Source of the DNA: Candidatus Nealsonbacteria bacterium
GTDB taxonomy: Bacteria; Patescibacteriota; Minisyncoccia; Minisyncoccales; JBGOYX01
Reading direction: 5' to 3'
DNA length: 64,000 bases
Assembly: GCA_963820485.1 (NCBI GenBank)
Contig: CAWFZW010000003.1
Coordinates: forward strand, 567 to 64,566
Position numbers and translations under genes: made by a program. Below, piece by piece: positions 377 to 53,326 of the stretch. Under the pieces are notes generated by a model that was not told the origin of the DNA, ran no database searches, and worked only from the letters and a program-made list of their open reading frames with translations. Position 1 is the first letter of the stretch. Each line of letters starts with the position of its first letter.

Positions 377-425
377 ATTTTTATTTTTTAATTTCGGAAT
401 TTATATATAATTTTACTATACCGAA

Positions 426-457
426 ATCAAGGTTCTTGCCGAAGGCAAGGTTCTTAT
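426..457 (-). repeat. Family-A palindromic element, copy A1 (ATAAGAACCTTGCCTTCGGCAAGAACCTTGAT in gene sense)
   Basis: Matches 9 other copies. Its TAA (454-456) is the stop codon of ORF 454..804. Confidence 0.75.
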
Positions 458-1275: not shown

Positions 1276-1438
1276 AGGTGGTAATACTTTGTTAATCGCG
1301 GCACGTCCCGACTTCGTCGGGACTAACACCACTCTTTAGAAACCCTCTGTTTCTAACATTTTCGCCCTCGGCGAAAGCCTGTTTTCCTATACTGGGAAAC
1401 CGAATGGTTTCCCCGACCCCTTTCCGATATCTGATGTC
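1276..1438 (-). ncRNA. E-family structured element, copy 1 (ends at +1 of tRNA-Tyr)
   Basis: Aligns with 8280-8436 and 53167-53326. Shared core: CATCGGAAGGGGGTCGGGGAAACC-ATTC-GGTTTCCCCGTGTAGGAAAA, TTAGAAAC-AGAGG-GTTTCTAA, GCGATTAAC...TTACCAC. Confidence 0.5.
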
Positions 1439-4032: not shown

Positions 4033-4320
4033 CTATTCAATTATCCTCCCCGCGATCTCCTTGATGACCTTTCTTACGGCGACTTTTCTTTTGGAGAGAA
4101 ATCCTTTTTTAACGAGAACTTCTTCAAAAATCGTCAGCCGATCCTTACTGATTTCTACTATGTCCCCGATGAACTCATCGGGCCCAAATAAATCAATAAG
4201 ACGCCCCATTCCAGGAGACTTAAGGGTTTTTAGATGAAATTTATCATCTGTTCCCCTTGTTAGTTCGTACTCCGCAGGCTTAAAACACGGGTGATATTGC
4301 ATCTTGATGATCATTTTCAT
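4033..4320 (-). CDS. hypothetical protein, 95 aa
   Basis: ORF preceded by GAAGGAGAAAAAAATG. Confidence 0.5.
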   Translation of the reverse strand: MKMIIKMQYHPCFKPAEYELTRGTDDKFHLKTLKSPGMGRLIDLFGPDEFIGDIVEISKDRLTIFEEVLVKKGFLSKRKVAVRKVIKEIAGRIIE

Positions 4321-4403
4321 TTTTTTCTCCTTCTTCCCGAAAGAAAAATTTTTATGCCAGTCTCCAAGATCCCCTTGAACCGCTGACTCGGACCACTATT
4401 TTC

Positions 4404-5774: not shown

Positions 5775-6136
5775 CTATTAAACTAACAAGTGGCTCTCGG
5801 AGAGAGCCACTTGGTCAAATGTCTATTTTTTCTCTCTCCTTTGATTTTTGATTTTTCCTGTAAATTGTCTCCAAATTTCTTTGAAGAAAATTTACAGAAG
5901 AGGGGAAGCAGTAAGGAGGTGGCTGCTGGGATTCTCGGTGGTGGTAGGGTCGTGACTAACTATATCTACCAACTTCACCGAGAACCCAGCAAACCATTCC
6001 TTACTATCTTTCGCTTCCCCTCAGAACTTTCTTTTTTTAATGTATAGGTGCAAATCCCTCTTCTCTAGCTTATTTAAGGAGAAGGATTTGAACCTGTTTT
6101 TATATCGTTTTCAATGTTCTTTCTTTACCCTCTTAC
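5775..6136 (-). ncRNA. candidate ~360-nt non-coding transcript or long structured leader
   Basis: Lies downstream of a perfect consensus promoter and has no plausible ORF. Contains a 119-nt rod hairpin (5902-6020) and a hairpin at 6047-6095. A 12-bp stem at 5787-5813 is followed by TTAGTTT. Confidence 0.35.
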
Positions 6137-8279: not shown

Positions 8280-8436
8280 TGTGGTAACACAAAATTAGTC
8301 GCGGCACGTCCCGCTTTCGGCGGGACTAACACCGCTCTTTAGAAACCCTCTGTTTCTAACGTCCCGATTTCATCGGGACTGTTTTCCTACACGGGGAAAC
8401 CGAATGGTTTCCCCGACCCCCTTCCGATGTGGAATG
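8280..8436 (-). ncRNA. E-family structured element, copy 2 (ends 2 nt before the rpmF ATG)
   Basis: Four hairpins: GGGGAAACC/GGTTTCCCC, GTCCCGAT/ATCGGGAC, TTAGAAAC/GTTTCTAA and GTCCCGC/GCGGGAC. Homologous to 1276-1438 and 53167-53326. Confidence 0.5.
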
Positions 8437-8479
8437 TTATTTAAAAAATAATTACAACTGAATTTTATGTTAGCAGAAA

Positions 8480-15357: not shown

Positions 15358-17066
15358 TTGAAAAAGTTCGCCATTCGTTGTCTCATATTTTAGCTGCTGC
15401 AGTTCAGGAATTATATCCCGGAACTCGTTTTGGCATGGGACCGGCAATTAATAATGGTTTTTATTATGATTTTGAATTTAAAACTCCTTTAACACAAGGA
15501 GGTTTACCGAAAATCGAAGAAAAAATGAGAGAAATTATTAGAAAAAATTTAGAATTTAAGTTTAGAAATTTAGAGAAAAATAAAGTAAAAATATTATTTA
15601 AAGAACAACCTTTTAAATTGGAATTGATTGATGAGTTAAAAGAAAAAAAAGCTAAGATTTATGAAACCGGATATTTTGTTGATCTTTGTAAAGGACCTCA
15701 CGTCAAATCAACAAAAGAAATTCCCCTTGATGGTTTCAAACTTACCAGAATTGCTGGCGCCTATTGGAAAGGCGATGAAAAAAAACCAATGCTGACCAGA
15801 ATTTATGGATTGGCTTTTAAATCAAAAAAAGAATTAGATGTTTTTCTTTTAAAAGAAGCTGAAATCGAAAAAAGAGACCACCGCGCTTTAGGCCAAAAAT
15901 TAGAATTATTTTTATTTGATGAAGAAGTTGGAGCAGGCCTTCCTTTATGGATACCAAAGGGTGAAATTATGAGAAATATAATTGAAGATTATCTACGAAA
16001 AGAATTGATTTCGCAAGGATATCAATTTATTACCACTCCTCACATTGGAAAATTGGCTCTTTGGAAAACCTCCGGTCACTGGGAGCTTTATCGAGAAAAC
16101 ATCTATTCTCCCATTGATATTGAAGGTGAAAAATACTTATTAAAACCGATGAATTGTCCTTTTCATGCAAAAATTTATCAGTTAAAAATCCGCTCTTATA
16201 AAGATTTACCTTTTAAATTAGCTGAGTTTGGAACGGTTTACAGACATGAAAGGTCGGGAACCCTTCATGGTTTGTTTAGAGTGAGAGGATTTACCCAAGA
16301 CGATGCCCATGTCTGGTGCGCTCCCGACCAATTAAGTTTGGAATTAACTAAACTTTTAAAAGAAGGCTTAAAAATTTTAAGAACATTCGGCTTTAAAGAT
16401 TTTAATATTTATCTTTCTACCAGACCAGAAAAATATGCCGGCACAGAAAGAGGATGGATTAAGGCCACTAATTCTCTCAAATATGTCTTAAAAAAGCTAA
16501 AATTAAAATTTCAAATTGACCCAGGGGGAGGTGTATTTTATGGCCCAAAAATTGATATCAAAATTAAAGATAGTTTAGGAAGAGAGTGGCAATGCACTAC
16601 CATTCAAGTTGATTTTAATCTGCCCGATAGATTTAATATTACTTTTGTCAATAAAAAAGGAAAAAAGGAAAAACCCTATATGATTCACCGGGCATTGATT
16701 GGTTCTATGGAAAGATTTATTGGAGTTATGATTGAACATTACGGCGGAGCTTTTCCATTATGGCTTTCTCCCGTTCAAATTTGGATAATACCGATCGGCT
16801 CCCGCCACGAAAAATATGCTAAAAAAATTGTTGAATTTTTAAAAGAAAATAATCTAAGAGTTGAATTAAAAGATGAAAACGAAACTGTTTCAAAAAAAAT
16901 CAGGGAAGGCGAATTACAAAAAATTCCCTATTTATTAGTTGTCGGCGATAAAGAAATAAAATCAAAATCAATCAGAGTAAGAGAAAGAGGAAAAGGCGAC
17001 ATCGGACAGATAAGATTAACTAAATTCTTAAAAAAGGTTAAAATAAGATTACAGCAAAAATTGTAA
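15354..17066 (+). CDS. thrS: threonyl-tRNA synthetase lacking the N-terminal TGS domain
   Basis: Starts at the editing-domain motif RHSLSHILAAAV. Class II core and anticodon-binding domain present. ATGA overlap with dnaE. Confidence 0.9.
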   Translation: MIEKVRHSLSHILAAAVQELYPGTRFGMGPAINNGFYYDFEFKTPLTQGGLPKIEEKMREIIRKNLEFKFRNLEKNKVKILFKEQPFKLELIDELKEKKAKIYETGYFVDLCKGPHVKSTKEIPLDGFKLTRIAGAYWKGDEKKPMLTRIYGLAFKSKKELDVFLLKEAEIEKRDHRALGQKLELFLFDEEVGAGLPLWIPKGEIMRNIIEDYLRKELISQGYQFITTPHIGKLALWKTSGHWELYRENIYSPIDIEGEKYLLKPMNCPFHAKIYQLKIRSYKDLPFKLAEFGTVYRHERSGTLHGLFRVRGFTQDDAHVWCAPDQLSLELTKLLKEGLKILRTFGFKDFNIYLSTRPEKYAGTERGWIKATNSLKYVLKKLKLKFQIDPGGGVFYGPKIDIKIKDSLGREWQCTTIQVDFNLPDRFNITFVNKKGKKEKPYMIHRALIGSMERFIGVMIEHYGGAFPLWLSPVQIWIIPIGSRHEKYAKKIVEFLKENNLRVELKDENETVSKKIREGELQKIPYLLVVGDKEIKSKSIRVRERGKGDIGQIRLTKFLKKVKIRLQQKL

Positions 17067-17131
17067 TCTTGGATGCTTCGCATATTTTAAGATTACAGCA
17101 AAAATTGTAATCTTGGATGCTTCGCATATTG
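17044..17131 (+). repeat. 44-bp tandem duplication (2 copies) covering the thrS stop codon and a GATTACA..TGTAATC hairpin
   Basis: TAAGATTACAGCAAAAATTGTAATCTTGGATGCTTCGCATATT occurs at 17044 and 17088. Confidence 0.9.
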
Positions 17132-27695: not shown

Positions 27696-29634
27696 TTAAA
27701 TATCTAAATTCTTTACTTTTTTAGCGTGGGTTTGGATAAATTTCTTTCTTGGCAAGACTTCATCTCCCATCAGAATATCAAAAATTTTATCTGCCTCTCT
27801 GGCATTTTCAATATTCACTTGAAGTAATACCCTATTTTCTGGACTAATGGTTGTTTCCCACAATTCTATAGGATTCATTTCTCCCAAACCCTTATAGCGT
27901 TGGATATTTATTTCCGAAGATCTTTCTTTTTTGAAAGAATCTACAACTTCGGCTTTATCTCCTTCGGTATAGGCATATTCAATTCTTTTTCCGGCCTGAA
28001 TTTTGTAAAGCGGAGGCTGAGCAATATATAAATATCCTCCTTCAATAATGGGTTTAAAATAGCGATAAAAAAGCGTTAAAATTAAAGTTCGGATATGATT
28101 TCCATCTGAATCCGCATCAGCCATTATAATAATTTTATGATATCTTAATTTATCCAAATTAAAATCTTCAGCAATAGCAGTGCCCAAAGCAATAATTAGA
28201 GATTTAATTTCTTTTGAGGATAAAATTTTATCAAGTCTCGCTCGCTCAACATTTAAAATTTTACCTCTTAATGGCAAAATGGCCTGAAACTTTCTGTCTC
28301 TCGCTCCTTTGCAAGAACCGCCGGCTGACTCACCTTCAACGATGAATAATTCCGATTCTTCGGGGTTCCTGGAAGAGCAATCAGCTAATTTCCCCGGCAA
28401 AGCCAATCCTTCCAAAATCCCTTTTCTTAAAACTGTTTCTTTCGCTGCTTTAGCTGCTTTTCTGGCTTTCTGGGAAAGAACGCATTTTTCAATAACAGCT
28501 CTGGCATCCTGGGGATTTCTTTCCAAAAAATCGGTTAAGGTTTCGGAAATTACTGTTTCAACCGCTGATTTCGCTTCCGGATTTCCTAATTTTGCTTTGG
28601 TTTGTCCTTCAAATTGAGGCTCTTTTATTTTTACAGATACTACCCCAGTTAGCCCTTCCCTAATATCTTCTCCAGTTAAGTTTTCATCATTTTCTTTTAA
28701 AAACCCGTTTTTTCTGGCATAATCATTAAAGGTTTTTGTCAAAGCTGTTCTGAAACCGGTCAGATGAGTGCCTCCTTCTTGGGTATTTATATTATTGGCG
28801 AAACTTTCTTCGAAACATTCGTATTCTTCAGTATATTGAAAAGCGCCTTCAACTAAAATTCCATTTTTTTCGCCAAATCCATAAAAAATATTTTGATGTC
28901 GTGGGGTAACGCCCCGAGTTAAATATTTAACATATGAAGCTAATCCCCCCTCAAAATAGAAACTGTAGCTTTTTGTTGGATTTCTCTCTTTCATCAATGA
29001 GGGTTATTCTAATTTCTTTAGTCAAATAAGCCTGTTGTCTAAGGTGATTTAATATTTTTTTAAAATCAAATTTAATCTCTTCAAAAATTTCAGTGTCGGG
29101 CTCAAAAATAACCGTAGTGCCGCTGCTTTTGCATTTGCCTATTTTTTTTACTTTATTTTTCGCTTTTCCTTTGGAATATTCTTGATAAAATTTTTCTCCC
29201 TTACGGCAAACTTCGGTTCTCATCCAAGAAGATAAAGCACAAACCACCGAAACTCCTACGCCGTGTAAACCCCCTGCCACCTGATAGGCCTTCCCGCCGA
29301 ATTTCGCTCCGGCATGCAAAGTGGTCATTACTGTTTCCAAAGCTGATTTTTTTGTCTGAGGGTGTTTGTCAACCGGAATGCCGCGACCGTCATCCGTAGT
29401 TTTTACTTTGTTCCCCGGTAAAAGAATAAGTTCAATATTTTTACAAAAACCGGCCATTGCTTCATCTAATGAATTATCAACGCATTCCCAAACCAAGTGG
29501 TGTAAACCTTCAGAACCAGTAGACCCTATATACATTCCCGGCCTCTTTCTGACGGGTTCCAACCCCTCCAAAACATAAATATCTTTAGCTGTATAAGATT
29601 CTTCAGCTTTAACTTTTTTAGATTTTTTTGGCAT
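27696..29634 (-). pseudogene. gyrB: DNA gyrase subunit B, one +1 frameshift
   Basis: GHKL motif HHLVWECVDNSLDEA and TOPRIM motif LFIVEGESAGGS. Fragments join near 28978-28990 (..LIDERE|NPTKSYSFYFEGG..). Confidence 0.85.
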
Positions 29635-29650
29635 ATTATTAAATTATTTA

Positions 29651-29684
29651 TCCAAGGTTCTTGAGCGAAGCGAGAGGTTTTTAT
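29651..29684 (-). repeat. Family-A element, copy A2 (degenerate)
   Basis: TCCAAGGTTCTTGAGCGAAGCGAGAGGTTTTTAT. Confidence 0.6.
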
Positions 29685-29691
29685 ATTTATA

Positions 29692-29719
29692 TTCAAGGTT
29701 CTCGCCGAGAGGTTCTTAT
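29692..29719 (-). repeat. Family-A element, copy A3; supplies the pheT stop codon
   Basis: TTCAAGGTTCTCGCCGAGAGGTTCTTAT. The TAA at 29716-29718 is the pheT stop. Confidence 0.7.
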
Positions 29720-31806
29720 TTTCTCACTTGCCACTCTGGGATTTTTTCCAGAGTTTTAATTATTTTGTTTTGAATTTCGTCTATTTCTTCAGAAGACAAG
29801 GTTTTATCTTCGGCTTGATAAATTATGTGAAAAGCTAAATTCTTTTTTCCCTCGGGCAACTCTTCACCCTCATAAATATCAAAAAGGTCAATATCGCGAA
29901 TGATTTTGCCGCCAATCCTCTTAATTTTATTTAAAACTTCCTCTACTTTCACAAATTGGGGCACCAAAACAGCAATATCTCTGACTGCTGCCGGATACCG
30001 AGAAATTGGCTGATATTCATGTTCTTCCGAGGCTAATTTTGTTAATTTTTCAAAAAAGAGCTCAAAATAGATTATTTTTGATTTTATCTGAAATTTATCC
30101 AAAATATGGGGAGAAATTTCTCCTAAAAATCCTATTCTTTCTTGATTAATTTTTATTTCCGCTATTTTTTTTGCCTTCCACCAGAAAATTTCTTTTTCTT
30201 TGTTTTTGGTCAAATATTCATCATACCAAACATCATTAATTCCCAATCTGTTTAAAAGTAAATCAATAACTCCTTTAGCTTGATAGAACACTTCTCCAGT
30301 CATTACGCCGGCGAGCATTCTTTCTTCTGTTTTGGGAGATTGAAAAATCTTTCCCAGCTCAAATATTTTTATTTCACCGAAATTTCTGAAATTTCTTTCA
30401 ATATTTTTCAATAAATTAGGAATTAAGCTCGGCCTTAGATATTGGAAATCGGAGCTTATTGGATTTTCTATTTCAATTAAATCTCTTTTATTTCGAGCGG
30501 AGCGAGAATCAAGGTTCTCGCCCTTTGCGAGGTTCTTATTGTATTTAAAAATTTCAGCATCTTTTTCAGAAATAAAAGAGTAATTATAAACTTCGGTAAA
30601 CCAGCTTCTTTTAAAATATTTTTTGTAATGTCTTTCCAAAAAATATCAAGGTTTCTTTTTGGCGGAATTAAAGCTTCAATCGGAAAAATAACGGGGATAT
30701 TTTGATAGCCGTAAATTCTGCTGATTTCTTCAATTAAATCTTCGGGCAGTACAACGTCTAATCTTTTAGTGGGAACCTGAACTTTTAAAATCTTTTTACC
30801 CGAAATTTTAACTTTGAAATCCAAATTTTTAAGAATTCTTATTATTTCTTTTTTTGGAATTTCTATCCCAAGTAAACTTTTAACATAATTTAAATCTAAA
30901 TTAATTTTTTTTGGCGAAAACTTTTTTAGGATAAGTATCAATTAAACCTTGGGCTATTTTACCACCGGCTATTTTCTGAATTAAATAAGCCGCTCTATTT
31001 ACGGCGAATTCGGTAAGGTTCGGCGAAATTCCGTGTTCAAACCTTAAAGAGGCATCTGTTTTTAAGTCTATCATTTTAGAACCCCGACGAATAATCTTGG
31101 GGTTAAAGTTTGCCGACTCAAGGATAATGGTTTTTGTTTTTGAATCAATTTCGGCGCTCAAACCTCCTTTTATCCCGGCAATGGCTATTGGTTTTTCGGC
31201 ATCAGCAATTACTAAAATATCATTAAACAGATTGTATCTTTCTCCGTCCAAAGTAATAATTTTTTCACCCTCTTTAGCAAATCTAACGACGATTTTCTGA
31301 CCCTCCAGCTTTCCCCCATCAAAAGCATGGAGAGGCTGACCTGTTTCCAACATTACATAATTCGCAATATCAACAATATTATTAATTGGTCTTAACCCGC
31401 AAGCTTTTAATTTATCTATTATATATTTTGGTGAAAGTCCGACTTTTACATTAACAACTACTCTGGCTGTATATCTTGGGCAGGCATTTTTATCTTTTAC
31501 TTCAATACTGACAAAATCTTTTGCTTTTAAATTTTTATCCTCTTGAATGATAAATGTCGGGTCCTGAAATTTCAAATTGGTAATAGCTGCGATTTCTCTG
31601 GCAACCCCAATGTGGGAAAAACAATCCCCGGCCCTATTCGGCCTAACATCAATATCTAAAATAAAATCTTCTCCTTCCTGTGTGGGAACAGTGGGTTTTT
31701 TTATTTCTTCTACTTCGGCAAAATGCATAGTTAAAATTTCTGCCAACTTTTCTGGCTTCAATCTTGTCTTTGATAATTCTTTTAGCCAATTATATGAGTA
31801 TTTCAC
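29716..31806 (-). pseudogene. pheT: phenylalanyl-tRNA synthetase beta subunit, two frameshifts, plus an in-frame Family-A insertion
   Basis: Three ORF-track fragments. A +1 shift lies in the A8 run at about 30905-30912 and a -1 shift at about 30598-30600. GTG start. Confidence 0.85.
30493..30539 (-). repeat. Family-A element, copy A4, inserted in frame in pheT (encodes ..NKNLAKGENLDSRSAR..)
   Basis: GAGCGGAGCGAGAATCAAGGTTCTCGCCCTTTGCGAGGTTCTTAT. Confidence 0.75.
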
Positions 31807-32968: not shown

Positions 32969-33000
32969 ATCAAGGTTCTTGCCGAAGGTAAGGTTCTTAT
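32969..33000 (-). repeat. Family-A element, copy A5, just upstream of the pheS start
   Basis: ATCAAGGTTCTTGCCGAAGGTAAGGTTCTTAT. Confidence 0.75.
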
Positions 33001-33137
33001 TTTTGAGCAAATTTAGGTTAACTTTGACTACCTTCATTCTTTAATTTTACCTTAAAATTAAGCAAAAATCAAGTCAAAAACTGGGGATAACTTAAGGAGC
33101 GTAGCGACGAAACCCGCCCTACAAAGTGGGGTGAGGG

Positions 33138-48516: not shown

Positions 48517-49950
48517 ATGACTAAACGCACTCGGACGATTTTATTTTACATTTGTGTTTTTTTATTTCTCTTGGTTTCTCCCCTGATAATTCTTTATTCT
48601 CAAGGCTATAGGATTGATTTTAATCCGCCAGCTGAAGGTAAGATATTAACTAAAACCGGTGGATTTTTTTTGAAAATTGAACCGAAACAAACCGAAATTT
48701 ATATTAATAAAAATTTGGTAAAAAAGACTGATTTTTTCTTTGGCTCGGTCTTGATTGAAAATCTTCTGCCTAAAAAATACGATGTTTCAATAAAAAAGGA
48801 TGGTTATCAGGATTGGGAGAAAAACTTGGAGGTGAAAGAAAATTTGGTAACCGAAGCGAAAAACATTGTTTTAATCCCAAAAAACCTGAATTTTCAAATT
48901 TTGGCTAAGGAAGTAAAAGATTTATTTTTAGCGCCAGATGAAAGAAAAATGATTCTTAAAAAAGAAAACGAAGAAGGCTGGTATCTAACTTTATTTGATT
49001 TGGAAAAAAATACGGGGTCGGTTCTATTGGAAGAGAAAAATCTTTCGCAAAAAAAAATTGATTTTTTGAGTCTACAATGGTCGTCTGATTCAAAAAAAAT
49101 TATTTTAGAAAGCGTAGTTAGTAAGGTTAAAAAATACTTTATTTTTGAACTTGAAAACCCCCTACCTATTTCGCCAATCCCTATAGATTTTTTAAGGATA
49201 CCTGAAAAAATTTCTTTTAATTCCAGAGATTCTCAAAAATTATTTTCTTCAAAAGAGAAGGCTCTCTTTTTGAAATTGATTACAAAACAAAAGTAATTTC
49301 TGAACCAATTTTAACCGATTTGATAACTTACGAGGTTTCTGGAATTAGTATTTTCGGCTTAGACGCTTCGGGCTTATTTTTTACTTATAATTCTGATTAA
49401 TAAGGCTCAAAGAAATATTAAATATAGAGCCGTTTTCTATCAAAAAAGATGCGTCTTATCAGGTTTTTCTGAATTTGCCGGAAATTTTCTTGAAAGAAGA
49501 CAACGTTCTTTTCAAATTTAATTACGATTCAAAAATTTTTGAAAAAGTTTTTGAACCAGTAAAAGATTTAAAATTTTCTCAAGACAAAAAAAAGTTGATG
49601 TTTTTTAACGATTATGAAGTTTGGGTTTTATATTTAAAAGATATTTTAATTGAATCTCCCAAAAAAGCTGGCGACCTTCAGTTAATTTCCCGTTTTTCGG
49701 AAAAGATTAACCAAGTTTTTTGGTTAACCGACTATTATTTAATTTTTAATCTTGGAGATAAATTTAAAATTACTGAAATTGATGACAGGGATAGAATCCA
49801 AATTTGGGACCTTGGTTCATTTAAAGACCCCTAAGGATAGCGAGAGTCGGAACCTACGGGGCAGGCTGAAATTTTCTGGAATCAAAATAATAAAGAATTA
49901 TATATTTTAAGCGAAGGAAATTTTTATAAATCAGAAGAACTAATTAAATA
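48517..49950 (+). pseudogene. PEGA-domain / beta-propeller-like envelope protein, several frameshifts, plus a Family-A element carrying in-frame stops
   Basis: N-terminal TM and PEGA-like YDVSIKKDGYQDWEKNLEV. The reading frame changes at about 49296-49475. TAA GGA TAG at 49832-49840. Confidence 0.5.
49831..49861 (+). repeat. Family-A element, copy A10 (degenerate, same orientation relative to its host gene as the others)
   Basis: CTAAGGATAGCGAGAGTCGGAACCTACGGGG. Confidence 0.45.
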
Positions 49951-51756: not shown

Positions 51757-51786
51757 TTCAAGGTTCTCGCGAAGCGAGATTCTTAA
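51757..51786 (-). repeat. Family-A element, copy A6
   Basis: TTCAAGGTTCTCGCGAAGCGAGATTCTTAA. Confidence 0.7.
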
Positions 51787-51795
51787 TCCGTTAGG

Positions 51796-51827
51796 ATCAA
51801 GGTTCTCGCTGAAAGCGAGGTTCTTAT
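51796..51827 (-). repeat. Family-A element, copy A7
   Basis: ATCAAGGTTCTCGCTGAAAGCGAGGTTCTTAT. Confidence 0.75.
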
Positions 51828-51847
51828 ATCAACGAAGTCGCTATTTT

Positions 51848-52198
51848 TTATTTTATCAATTCAATAATCGCCATTTTCGCCCCGTCGGTTTTCCTTTGAC
51901 CGAGTTTTATTATTCTGGTATAACCGCCCTTTCTTTCTTTATACCGCGGAGCAATTTCGCTGAATAGTTTTTTAACTGTTCCGGGAGAAAAAAACTTCGC
52001 CAATAATCTTTTTGAAGCCAAATTTCCTTTTTTGGCTCTGGTGATAAATTTTTCAGCTAATCTTGAAATTTCTTTTGCTTTGGCTTCGGTGGTTTTAATT
52101 CTGTCTTTCAAAATTATAGCAGAAATCAAGCTCTTTAACAGAGCTTTTCTTTGGTCGCGCATTCTTCCGAATTTTCTTTCTTTTTTGAAATGCTTCAT
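51848..52198 (-). CDS. rplQ: 50S ribosomal protein L17
   Basis: MKHFKKERKFGRMRDQRKALLKSL. Confidence 0.9.
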   Translation of the reverse strand: MKHFKKERKFGRMRDQRKALLKSLISAIILKDRIKTTEAKAKEISRLAEKFITRAKKGNLASKRLLAKFFSPGTVKKLFSEIAPRYKERKGGYTRIIKLGQRKTDGAKMAIIELIK

Positions 52199-52214
52199 AG
52201 GTTAATCCATTAGG

Positions 52215-52246
52215 ATCAAGGTCCTCGCCGAAGGCGAGGTTCTTAC
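52215..52246 (-). repeat. Family-A element, copy A8; supplies the rpoA stop codon
   Basis: ATCAAGGTCCTCGCCGAAGGCGAGGTTCTTAC. The TAA at 52243-52245 is the rpoA stop. Confidence 0.75.
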
Positions 52247-53166: not shown

Positions 53167-53326
53167 AGTAGTAATATAAAGTTAATCGCTCGCCCTCATC
53201 CAGCCTTACGGCTGGCGGTTGCCTGAGGTAACCTTCGGGCTCGCTCTTTAAAAACTCTCTGTTTTTAATATTTTCCTACACGGGAAAACCGAATGGTTTT
53301 CCCGACCTCCTTCCGATGTGGGATTT
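53167..53326 (-). ncRNA. E-family structured element, copy 3 (ends 1 nt before the rpoA ATG, starts just after the rpsD stop)
   Basis: The core is conserved, with compensatory changes (GGGAAAACC/GGTTTTCCC; TTAAAAAC/GTTTTTAA). The variable 3' domain is replaced. Confidence 0.5.

Follow-up and report, generated by a model that had tools for sequence, protein, structure and literature searches.

A probably mobile family of short palindromic repeats in Patescibacteria

Several families of small dispersed repeats have been described in bacteria. Rickettsia palindromic elements (RPEs) are 100-150 bp long, belong to sequence families of their own and occur in Rickettsiales only. Repetitive extragenic palindromic (REP) sequences of Enterobacteria and Pseudomonas, with the related BIME and REPIN forms, begin with 5' GTAG, lie as inverted doublets and flank the genes for REP-associated tyrosine transposases (RAYTs). 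Mycobacterial interspersed repetitive units (MIRUs) are direct tandem repeats of 40-100 bp, known from one genus, while the Correia elements of Neisseria, which are miniature inverted-repeat transposable elements (MITEs), have terminal inverted repeats and a TA duplication. Here, we describe a hairpin repeat, family A, in a 64,000-nucleotide stretch of a Candidatus Nealsonbacteria metagenome-assembled genome (the window). In our view, family A probably consists of short palindromic repeats that are non-autonomous, evolutionarily mobile and widespread in Patescibacteria.

Copies in the window and structure of the element

The window holds nine copies of family A, every one on the minus strand. 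In each, a short inverted repeat, rich in GC and with a loop of 3-5 nt, stands between (A)TAAGAACCT on the 5' side and AGAACCTTGA on the 3' side. The GC content of the window is 35%, and almost all of its genes lie on the minus strand. Flanking genes were identified by Pfam annotation, and the bit scores below are those of a covariance model, R1, which comprises 40 distinct copies (37 from other genomes) and was run unfiltered on both strands.

388..456, core 427-456, minus strand: copy 1, between a 116-amino-acid open reading frame (ORF; 454-804) and the next gene; 58.2 bits, E 7e-10
29648..29718, minus strand: tandem pair between pheT and gyrB, with a core at 29693-29718 (26.8 bits) and a variant core at 29652-29683 (10.7 bits)
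30488..30538, core 30509-30538, minus strand: copy inside pheT; 52.1 bits
32958..32999, core 32970-32999, minus strand: copy inside pheS, in the 5' part of the gene; 56.8 bits
51738..51785, core 51758-51785, minus strand: second copy of the tandem pair between rplQ and rplM; 21.3 bits, E 0.02
51783..51826, core 51797-51826, minus strand: first copy of the tandem pair between rplQ and rplM; 54.8 bits
52202..52245, core 52216-52245, minus strand: copy between rpoA and rplQ; 47.6 bits
60531..60588, core 60555-60588, minus strand: copy inside tpiA, with a degenerate core hairpin; 29.7 bits

Chance does not account for these copies. The pattern AAGAACC-N8-20-GAACCTTG matches six times in the window against 0.00 expected from 100 shuffles, and a stricter pattern matches twice against 0 expected. 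R1 recovers eight copies at E <= 0.02, while the ninth (29653-29685, minus strand), which has the variant hairpin, reaches only E = 2.8; nothing else convincing was found by R1 on either strand of the window. The original prediction, made by reading the sequence alone, listed ten copies. Nine of them are real, with coordinates correct to within 1-3 nt, whereas the tenth, a degenerate copy placed at 49831-49861, belongs elsewhere. That site (49828-49861, minus strand) has no R1 match, and its motif, tgCCCCGTAGG...CCTTAGGGGt (CCCCGTAGG...CCTTAGGGG), is that of a different repeat family. Other features noted at the outset hold on the window copies: the hairpin is framed by a GAACCT direct repeat, there are two kinds of 3' flank, and three copies surround rplQ, one at the rpoA/rplQ junction and two at rplQ/rplM.

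The intergenic copies are closely fitted to their neighbours. The TAA of copy 1 (454-456) is the stop codon of the 116-amino-acid upstream ORF, which lies next to tRNA-Trp; the second hairpin of the copy, TTGATTTCGG...CCGAAATTAA at 388-430, has an AT-rich, promoter-like loop, and RNA folding of the copy gives two hairpins (z -4.0). The first copy of the pheT/gyrB pair (29693-29718) likewise supplies the pheT stop codon, and the variant core beside it (29652-29683) has the TCGCTTCGCTC type of hairpin. At the rpoA/rplQ junction, rpoA terminates on the TAA of the copy (52243-52245), 3 nt separate the second hairpin from the ATG of rplQ, and the predicted fold has -19.3 kcal/mol (z -3.9). The first copy between rplQ and the next gene, which is L13 (rplM) by Pfam, has the second hairpin TTGATCC-TAAC-GGATTAA; the second copy (core 51758-51785) is followed by the hairpin ACGCCTAGGGCGT.

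Three window copies lie in frame inside coding sequences, in pheS, pheT and tpiA, as had been proposed for this family. The pheT copy translates as NKNLAKGENLDSRSAR, a 16-residue insertion missing from the PheT orthologues of two retrieved loci, L088 and L095. The pheS copy translates as KNLTFGKNLDSVRMRA after residue 13, where the L088 orthologue reads MKMPKINLRVLKNQTQKEIEKAE with no insert. The tpiA copy translates as IRTRSLRSQNLDSSLRSEF, an 18-residue insertion in the loop that joins helix 1 to strand 2 of the triosephosphate isomerase (TIM), and it is missing in 12 of the 14 aligned homologues; the closest non-identical TIM relative has 63% identity. By its TIM homologues, the source of the window belongs to the Patescibacteria (Parcubacteria type). 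An AlphaFold model of this TIM, from a shallow 15-sequence alignment (mean predicted local distance difference test score, pLDDT, 74.7), scores residues 29-45 below 50. Another insertion, of three residues and rich in glycine, was seen at tpiA residues ~85-97 (window 60400-60440), where DPPAGGGAY stands against EEK-GAF in homologues, again with low model confidence.

The core of the element, module 1, combines nearly invariant flanks with a freely varying stem. It consists of (A)TAAGAACCT, a variable GC stem of 4-8 bp with a loop that is mostly TTC, and AGAACCTTGA. Positions -1 to +8 (TAAGAACCT) and the 3' AGAACCTTGA hardly vary, a conservation partly forced by the search pattern, and it fades 4-5 nt upstream. 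At least four consecutive pairs form in the inner segments of 66 of 109 distinct versions, against ~1.7 expected, and versions with at least five pairs show 22 distinct stem arms. Loops of TTC (23 versions) outnumber those of TTT (11). In a second class of core hairpin, the perfect stem is replaced by N-TCGCTTCGCTC-N'.

Stem changes are compensatory. That they are often paired had been noted in the window, and the observation extends to other genomes: in an ungapped comparison of 40 distinct copies of equal length, 95% of cells are paired and double changes occur in four of the six pairs. Double-change cells number 44 against 11.5 in shuffles, a value that none of 500 shuffles reaches, and all slid controls of the stem alignment drop to 32-43% paired. 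Wobble asymmetry in the core stem is uninformative about the folding strand (10 C.A vs 10 T.G mismatches). Facing one another, the GAACC flanks can form a symmetric internal loop, with the GC stem above it and a predicted short lower stem (UAAG/CUUG) below; this lower stem would use the same CUUG bases as the stem of the second hairpin.

About half of the copies have a second hairpin, module 2. Its stem, TTGATTC.../...GAATTAA, is opened by the TTGA that ends module 1, and 92 of 188 copies, compared with 16 of 188 shuffled controls, have a stem score of at least 6. Here, too, there are compensatory variants (TTGATCC/GGATTAA, TTGGTCCG/TGGACTAA and TTGCTTCG/TGAAGTAG). A fixed G.T wobble in module 2 can pair on the sense strand only, since it would be an A.C mismatch on the other, and RNA folding of whole units gives both hairpins. 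The whole unit measures ~45-70 nt, and at some loci identical units of 41-61 nt form head-to-tail arrays.

The loop of module 2 is interchangeable. It may be a few nucleotides, the 11-mer TCGCTTCGCTC or a full sigma-70-type promoter. The promoter subfamily, TTGATT-N16-TATAAT-CTTGAATTAA, comprises 52 of 191 distinct copies; the spacer is 16 nt in 35 of the 52, and TATAAT is present in 35 of the 52. An ATG lies 11 nt past the -10 box in eight independent genes of this subfamily, and in 12 of 69 copies an ATG lies -1 to +4 nt from the end of hairpin 2. Window copies lack a -10 box, with copy 1 possibly excepted. A portable promoter in the module 2 loop is credible, given its match to the consensus and a native pheS promoter that shares its TTGATT -35 box and leaderless layout. 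This pheS promoter, conserved between the window (33038-33080) and L088 (~5830-5870), reads TTGATT, 17 nt, TAAAAT, with the ATG ~6 nt on; judged from its layout, it implies a putative leaderless mRNA and a TTGATT-type -35 box in these bacteria. In another retrieved locus (L020 4110-4300, minus strand), ~140 nt of structured, non-coding sequence with a T run at the end come after a promoter-bearing unit; this stretch may be a small RNA driven by the element's promoter. A close relative of this locus, L031, has 1.2 kb of different sequence at the same position.

Distribution, gain and loss

Family A is found far beyond the window. An exact 20-base pattern, TAAGAACCT-N8-14-AGAACCTTGAT, was scanned over species-representative genomes, for which we calculate ~8 chance matches. 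It occurs in more than 111 stretches of at least 68 assemblies, nearly all of them Patescibacteria among the matches listed, and this excludes the possibility, raised with the original prediction, that copies are confined to the window or to one operon. Loci retrieved from other genomes, 0.83 Mb in total (the L-numbers used here), contain 195 copies under a relaxed pattern. Labels among the matches listed are Nealsonbacteria, Gribaldobacteria, Paceibacteria, Minisyncoccales and Parcubacteria, with one Curtissbacteria and one Daviesbacteria. Many 'binchicken' genomes carry the label Saccharibacteria, but the RpoA of at least one of them (L078) is 68% identical to that of the window.

A few copies lie on contigs with other labels: L037, L050 and L062 are labelled Gammaproteobacteria, and L038 is labelled Nanoarchaeota. 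GC content is ~35% in three of these four loci and 45% in L050. All four are probably wrongly binned Patescibacteria contigs. Carriage by phages was considered and rejected, the sole match on a viral contig being a chance match in GC-rich coding sequence with no hairpin. No Rfam family matches the element at gathering thresholds, with only noise at E up to 10, and the literature, incompletely covered, yielded no earlier description of such a repeat in Patescibacteria.

We show that units have been gained and lost at gene junctions, have formed tandem arrays and have landed inside genes. The comparison of orthologous loci, proposed at the outset as a check, finds different junctions occupied in different species. 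The rpoA/rplQ junction is occupied in both the window and L051 but not in L106; rplQ/rplM is empty in L051, whereas the window has two copies there and L106 three; and rpsK/rpsD, which is empty in the window, has one copy in L092 and three in L078. The three intragenic copies of the window have no counterpart in orthologues. The closest pair, L020 and L031, is ~90% identical over 5 kb and ~90-95% identical around one intergenic insertion site, at which L031 has a complete promoter-bearing unit (~86 extra nucleotides) that L020 lacks. The CTCACC-stem subtype of this unit occurs in L020 at a different locus.

Sense copies inside genes keep the reading frame. Across the retrieved DNA, where context was judged from crude stop-to-stop ORFs, 13 sense copies lie in frame inside long ORFs, all in stop-free frames. 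Their hosts outside the window include TatD (two species, same site), MurB, a Mur ligase, L18, PGM/PMM (two species) and GvpL/F. Clear antisense copies inside ORFs number only three; they are in LepA, DegT and MurB. Intragenic copies evidently persist only in open frames and are translated as loop insertions of 14-18 residues. In a PGM/PMM gene labelled Curtissbacteria (L085 ~4280-4345), four tandem repeats encoding SFSANKQ stand directly before an in-frame family-A copy.

Several findings weigh against mobility. Cores within the window are 76-95% alike, which gives no indication that the family multiplied very recently in this genome. Flanks are almost identical across species whose RpoA is only 56-71% identical to that of the window, and a host function may explain this equally well. 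A cognate transposase, for which the original prediction suggested looking, was not found in flanking DNA: clustering of 1009 ORFs flanking elements (~0.9 Mb) gave housekeeping families only, and tblastn of this DNA with approximate sequences of IS200 TnpA and E. coli RAYT as queries gave no match. We found no terminal inverted repeats at the element ends. TAA-to-TAA lengths, partly counted by hand, fit a TAA duplication in pheT and several other copies and do not fit one in tpiA or L025. An 8-nt direct repeat, ATACGAAT, flanks the L031 insertion, and the empty L020 site has no match to it.

Orientation, mechanism and rival explanations

Family A is biased towards the sense strand of its neighbours. 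The co-orientation with transcription noted at the outset is strict in the window; across genomes it weakens to a bias of only 70-80%. Both flanking genes are sense in 51 cases and both antisense in 18, with 13 divergent cases in which the downstream gene is sense and four convergent ones. With each array counted once, 67 upstream genes are sense and 28 antisense. In 31 of 76 cases, the upstream ORF terminates on the TAA of the element. Inside genes, 13 sense against three antisense copies gives a binomial P of ~1e-3 by hand calculation, if the chance of sense is at most 0.4. All frames of the antisense strand of the element are free of stop codons, so frame constraints do not explain the 13:3 ratio. 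A GC-skew test of the replication strand was uninformative, the skew following the coding strand.

On the antisense strand, TTCTTAT comes after the GC hairpin, and a terminator scan flags this strand in every case examined. We prefer the explanation that the sense bias arises from selection against this terminator-like form inside transcription units, rather than from a strand-specific insertion mechanism. Antisense copies inside operons do exist, for example directly upstream of rplC in L010.

A mechanism consistent with these observations can be outlined. Copies would be made in trans by an enzyme or process that reads the hairpin and the conserved flanks, which is consistent with flanks conserved across the phylum while stems vary freely. 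In transcripts, the sense strand would fold into two hairpins. Intergenic copies would donate a TAA stop, and those of the promoter subfamily would also start the next gene with a leader of a few nucleotides. The antisense form, a hairpin followed by UUCUUAU, would resemble an intrinsic terminator and be selected against in genes and operons. The element may plausibly also serve its host, in RNA processing or as a portable promoter. A more far-reaching possibility, which we regard as doubtful, is that family A is a domesticated, phylum-wide plug-in expression module. It would combine a stop codon with two RNA hairpins to which a conserved factor of Patescibacteria binds, one subfamily adding a promoter for near-leaderless mRNAs, and would rewire operons by moving; the GAACC/GAACC loop would then be a putative protein-binding site.

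The most serious rival, possible in our view and still unlikely, is that the repeat is a host-selected RNA signal: an intercistronic punctuation mark, read by a conserved Patescibacteria protein or RNase, that sets mRNA ends or stability and has spread through its usefulness. Flanks conserved across at least 68 assemblies while stems vary, a fixed G.T wobble that pairs on the sense strand only, the tendency to sense orientation, the frequency at ribosomal-protein operon junctions and the tight geometry with the upstream stop and the downstream ATG are all as such a signal would predict. However, copies also lie within essential coding sequences, where the mRNA would be cut or destabilised, ~25-30% of intergenic copies are antisense, and orthologous junctions are often empty. 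An RNA signal of this kind is compatible with mobility and does not exclude it. It is improbable that the core hairpin is instead the intrinsic terminator of the upstream gene. The hairpin is GC-rich and often begins at the stop codon, but its sense tail, AGAACCUUGAUU, has no U tract, the terminator scan flags only the antisense strand, and sense copies lie inside pheS, pheT, tpiA, L18 and other genes as well as in mid-operon.

The remaining explanations are less probable still. Like the DNA uptake sequences or uptake signal sequences (DUS/USS) of naturally competent bacteria, family A has a short conserved motif common to related species, and such motifs sometimes lie in hairpins, as in Neisseria. 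Yet AGAACC occurs 26 times on the sense strand, ~15 of these within elements, and the other 11 match the 11.8 expected; hairpin-less forms are rare (3 of 47), and the density is ~1 per 7 kb, not 1 per kb, so that we give an uptake signal very little credence. A CRISPR-like array, or an array or remnant like those of tandem interspaced guide RNA (TIGR) systems, which are known in these bacteria (PMC12045711), is suggested by the regular 41-61-nt period of tandem copies at some loci and seems to us the least likely of all: the 'spacers' are identical or nearly so between units and are the second module, most copies are solitary, and no cas or tas family is among the flanking ORFs. Bypass or removal of intragenic copies, by a translational hop or a mini-intron, was brought into play when initial alignments to PDB sequences suggested a frame change of pheT at the element. 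Orthologues put this change ~60 nt upstream, at GGTTT(T)ACC, with the element in frame, and all 13 sense intragenic copies keep the frame, a pattern expected only if they are translated; bypass is thus highly improbable. The reading of family A as a mobile repeat family is the one that we retain.

Other repeats and comparison with known systems

The window and the retrieved loci contain other repeats. The second hairpin family, tgCCCCGTAGG-hairpin-CCTTyGGGGt, to which the rejected tenth copy belongs, has the following members:

window 49828-49861, minus strand: second-family copy
L020 2963-2998: second-family copy
L023 7611-7642: second-family copy
L069 652-683: second-family copy
L113 2757-2788: second-family copy

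At one site, L020 has a second-family copy that the ~90%-identical L031 lacks. In the TIM of L113 and L114, a second-family copy forms an in-frame 12-residue insertion, ACPVGSRRLSFG, in the same loop as the family-A copy of the window TIM. A GC-rich repeat of ~160 nt lies at window 1278-1437 and 8281-8437 (88% identity), with a partial copy at 53268-53326, and includes hairpins such as GTCCCGACTTCGTCGGGAC and GGGAAACCGAATGGTTTCCC. Its copies are directly upstream of a tRNA-Tyr/Thr cluster, of a 94-amino-acid ORF and of rpoA, and it has no Rfam match at gathering thresholds. Furthermore, a 44-nt tandem duplication (17044-17131, 98% identity) with the inverted repeat TAAGATTACAG...TGTAATCTT sits between a thrS-like gene and a 536-amino-acid ORF that has no Pfam match. 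In L088 (2480-2700), the pheT-gyrB spacer and the start of gyrB contain microsatellite-like runs (ATCCAAT x4; CCCAAA x6) where the window has two family-A copies.

Reading frames of essential genes are broken in four places within 5 kb of the window: pheT at ~30600 and ~30910, pheS at ~32480, and gyrB at 28951-28997, the last visible only as two overlapping ORFs. Three of the four breaks are at short homopolymer runs (GGTTT/ACC, A8 and A5). Indels from assembly or sequencing are the likelier cause; true pseudogenes or slippage are also possible.

Patescibacteria genomes are tiny and usually called streamlined, and a family of this kind suggests that they still tolerate, and may use, mobile DNA. 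Family A puts 14-18 residues into essential enzymes (PheS, PheT, TIM, MurB and L18), splits operon junctions and sometimes carries a promoter. Such elements account for odd insertions in conserved proteins and for unexpectedly long intergenic spacers. The repeat is also a candidate sequence marker for wrongly binned contigs of this group, and it offers candidate native promoter and RNA-hairpin parts for organisms with almost no genetic tools. Its conserved flanks point to a putative recognising protein.

Family A is apparently a new family of a known kind, the small palindromic mobile repeats, and we found no earlier description of one for this phylum. We regard it as new because it lacks one or more defining features of each of REP, RPE, MIRU and BOX. 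The original prediction of a REP/MITE-type element with RPE-like insertion into coding sequence is supported as a resemblance; several of the features that define REPs and RPEs are absent.

In its behaviour within coding sequence, family A is like the RPEs, which are palindromic, lie both between genes and in frame in housekeeping genes, are translated as insertions at surface loops and have no linked transposase. Family A differs from them in its length of ~45-70 nt, its two hairpins and tandem arrays, its occurrence in many species of a phylum-level group and its promoter subfamily. In form it is like the REPs, with which it shares an imperfect palindrome of ~30 nt, conserved flanks and compensatory stem changes, a position at gene 3' ends and within operons, clustering, and likely transcription as a stabilising hairpin. 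REPs are extragenic, whereas family A is also intragenic; its flanks are AAGAACC and AGAACC, its arrays run head to tail rather than as inverted doublets, and no RAYT was found in flanking DNA. Like MIRUs, it forms direct tandem repeats between the genes of operons, oriented one way relative to transcription, and its stop and start codons overlap those of neighbouring genes; unlike family A, MIRUs are not based on hairpins and do not lie in frame inside conserved enzymes. The Correia elements and the BOX and RUP elements of Streptococcus are likewise small and non-autonomous and bring promoters, hairpins and processing sites to their neighbours. No terminal repeats or target duplication of the Correia type are demonstrable in family A, while with BOX it shares a modular build with a variable number of internal units.

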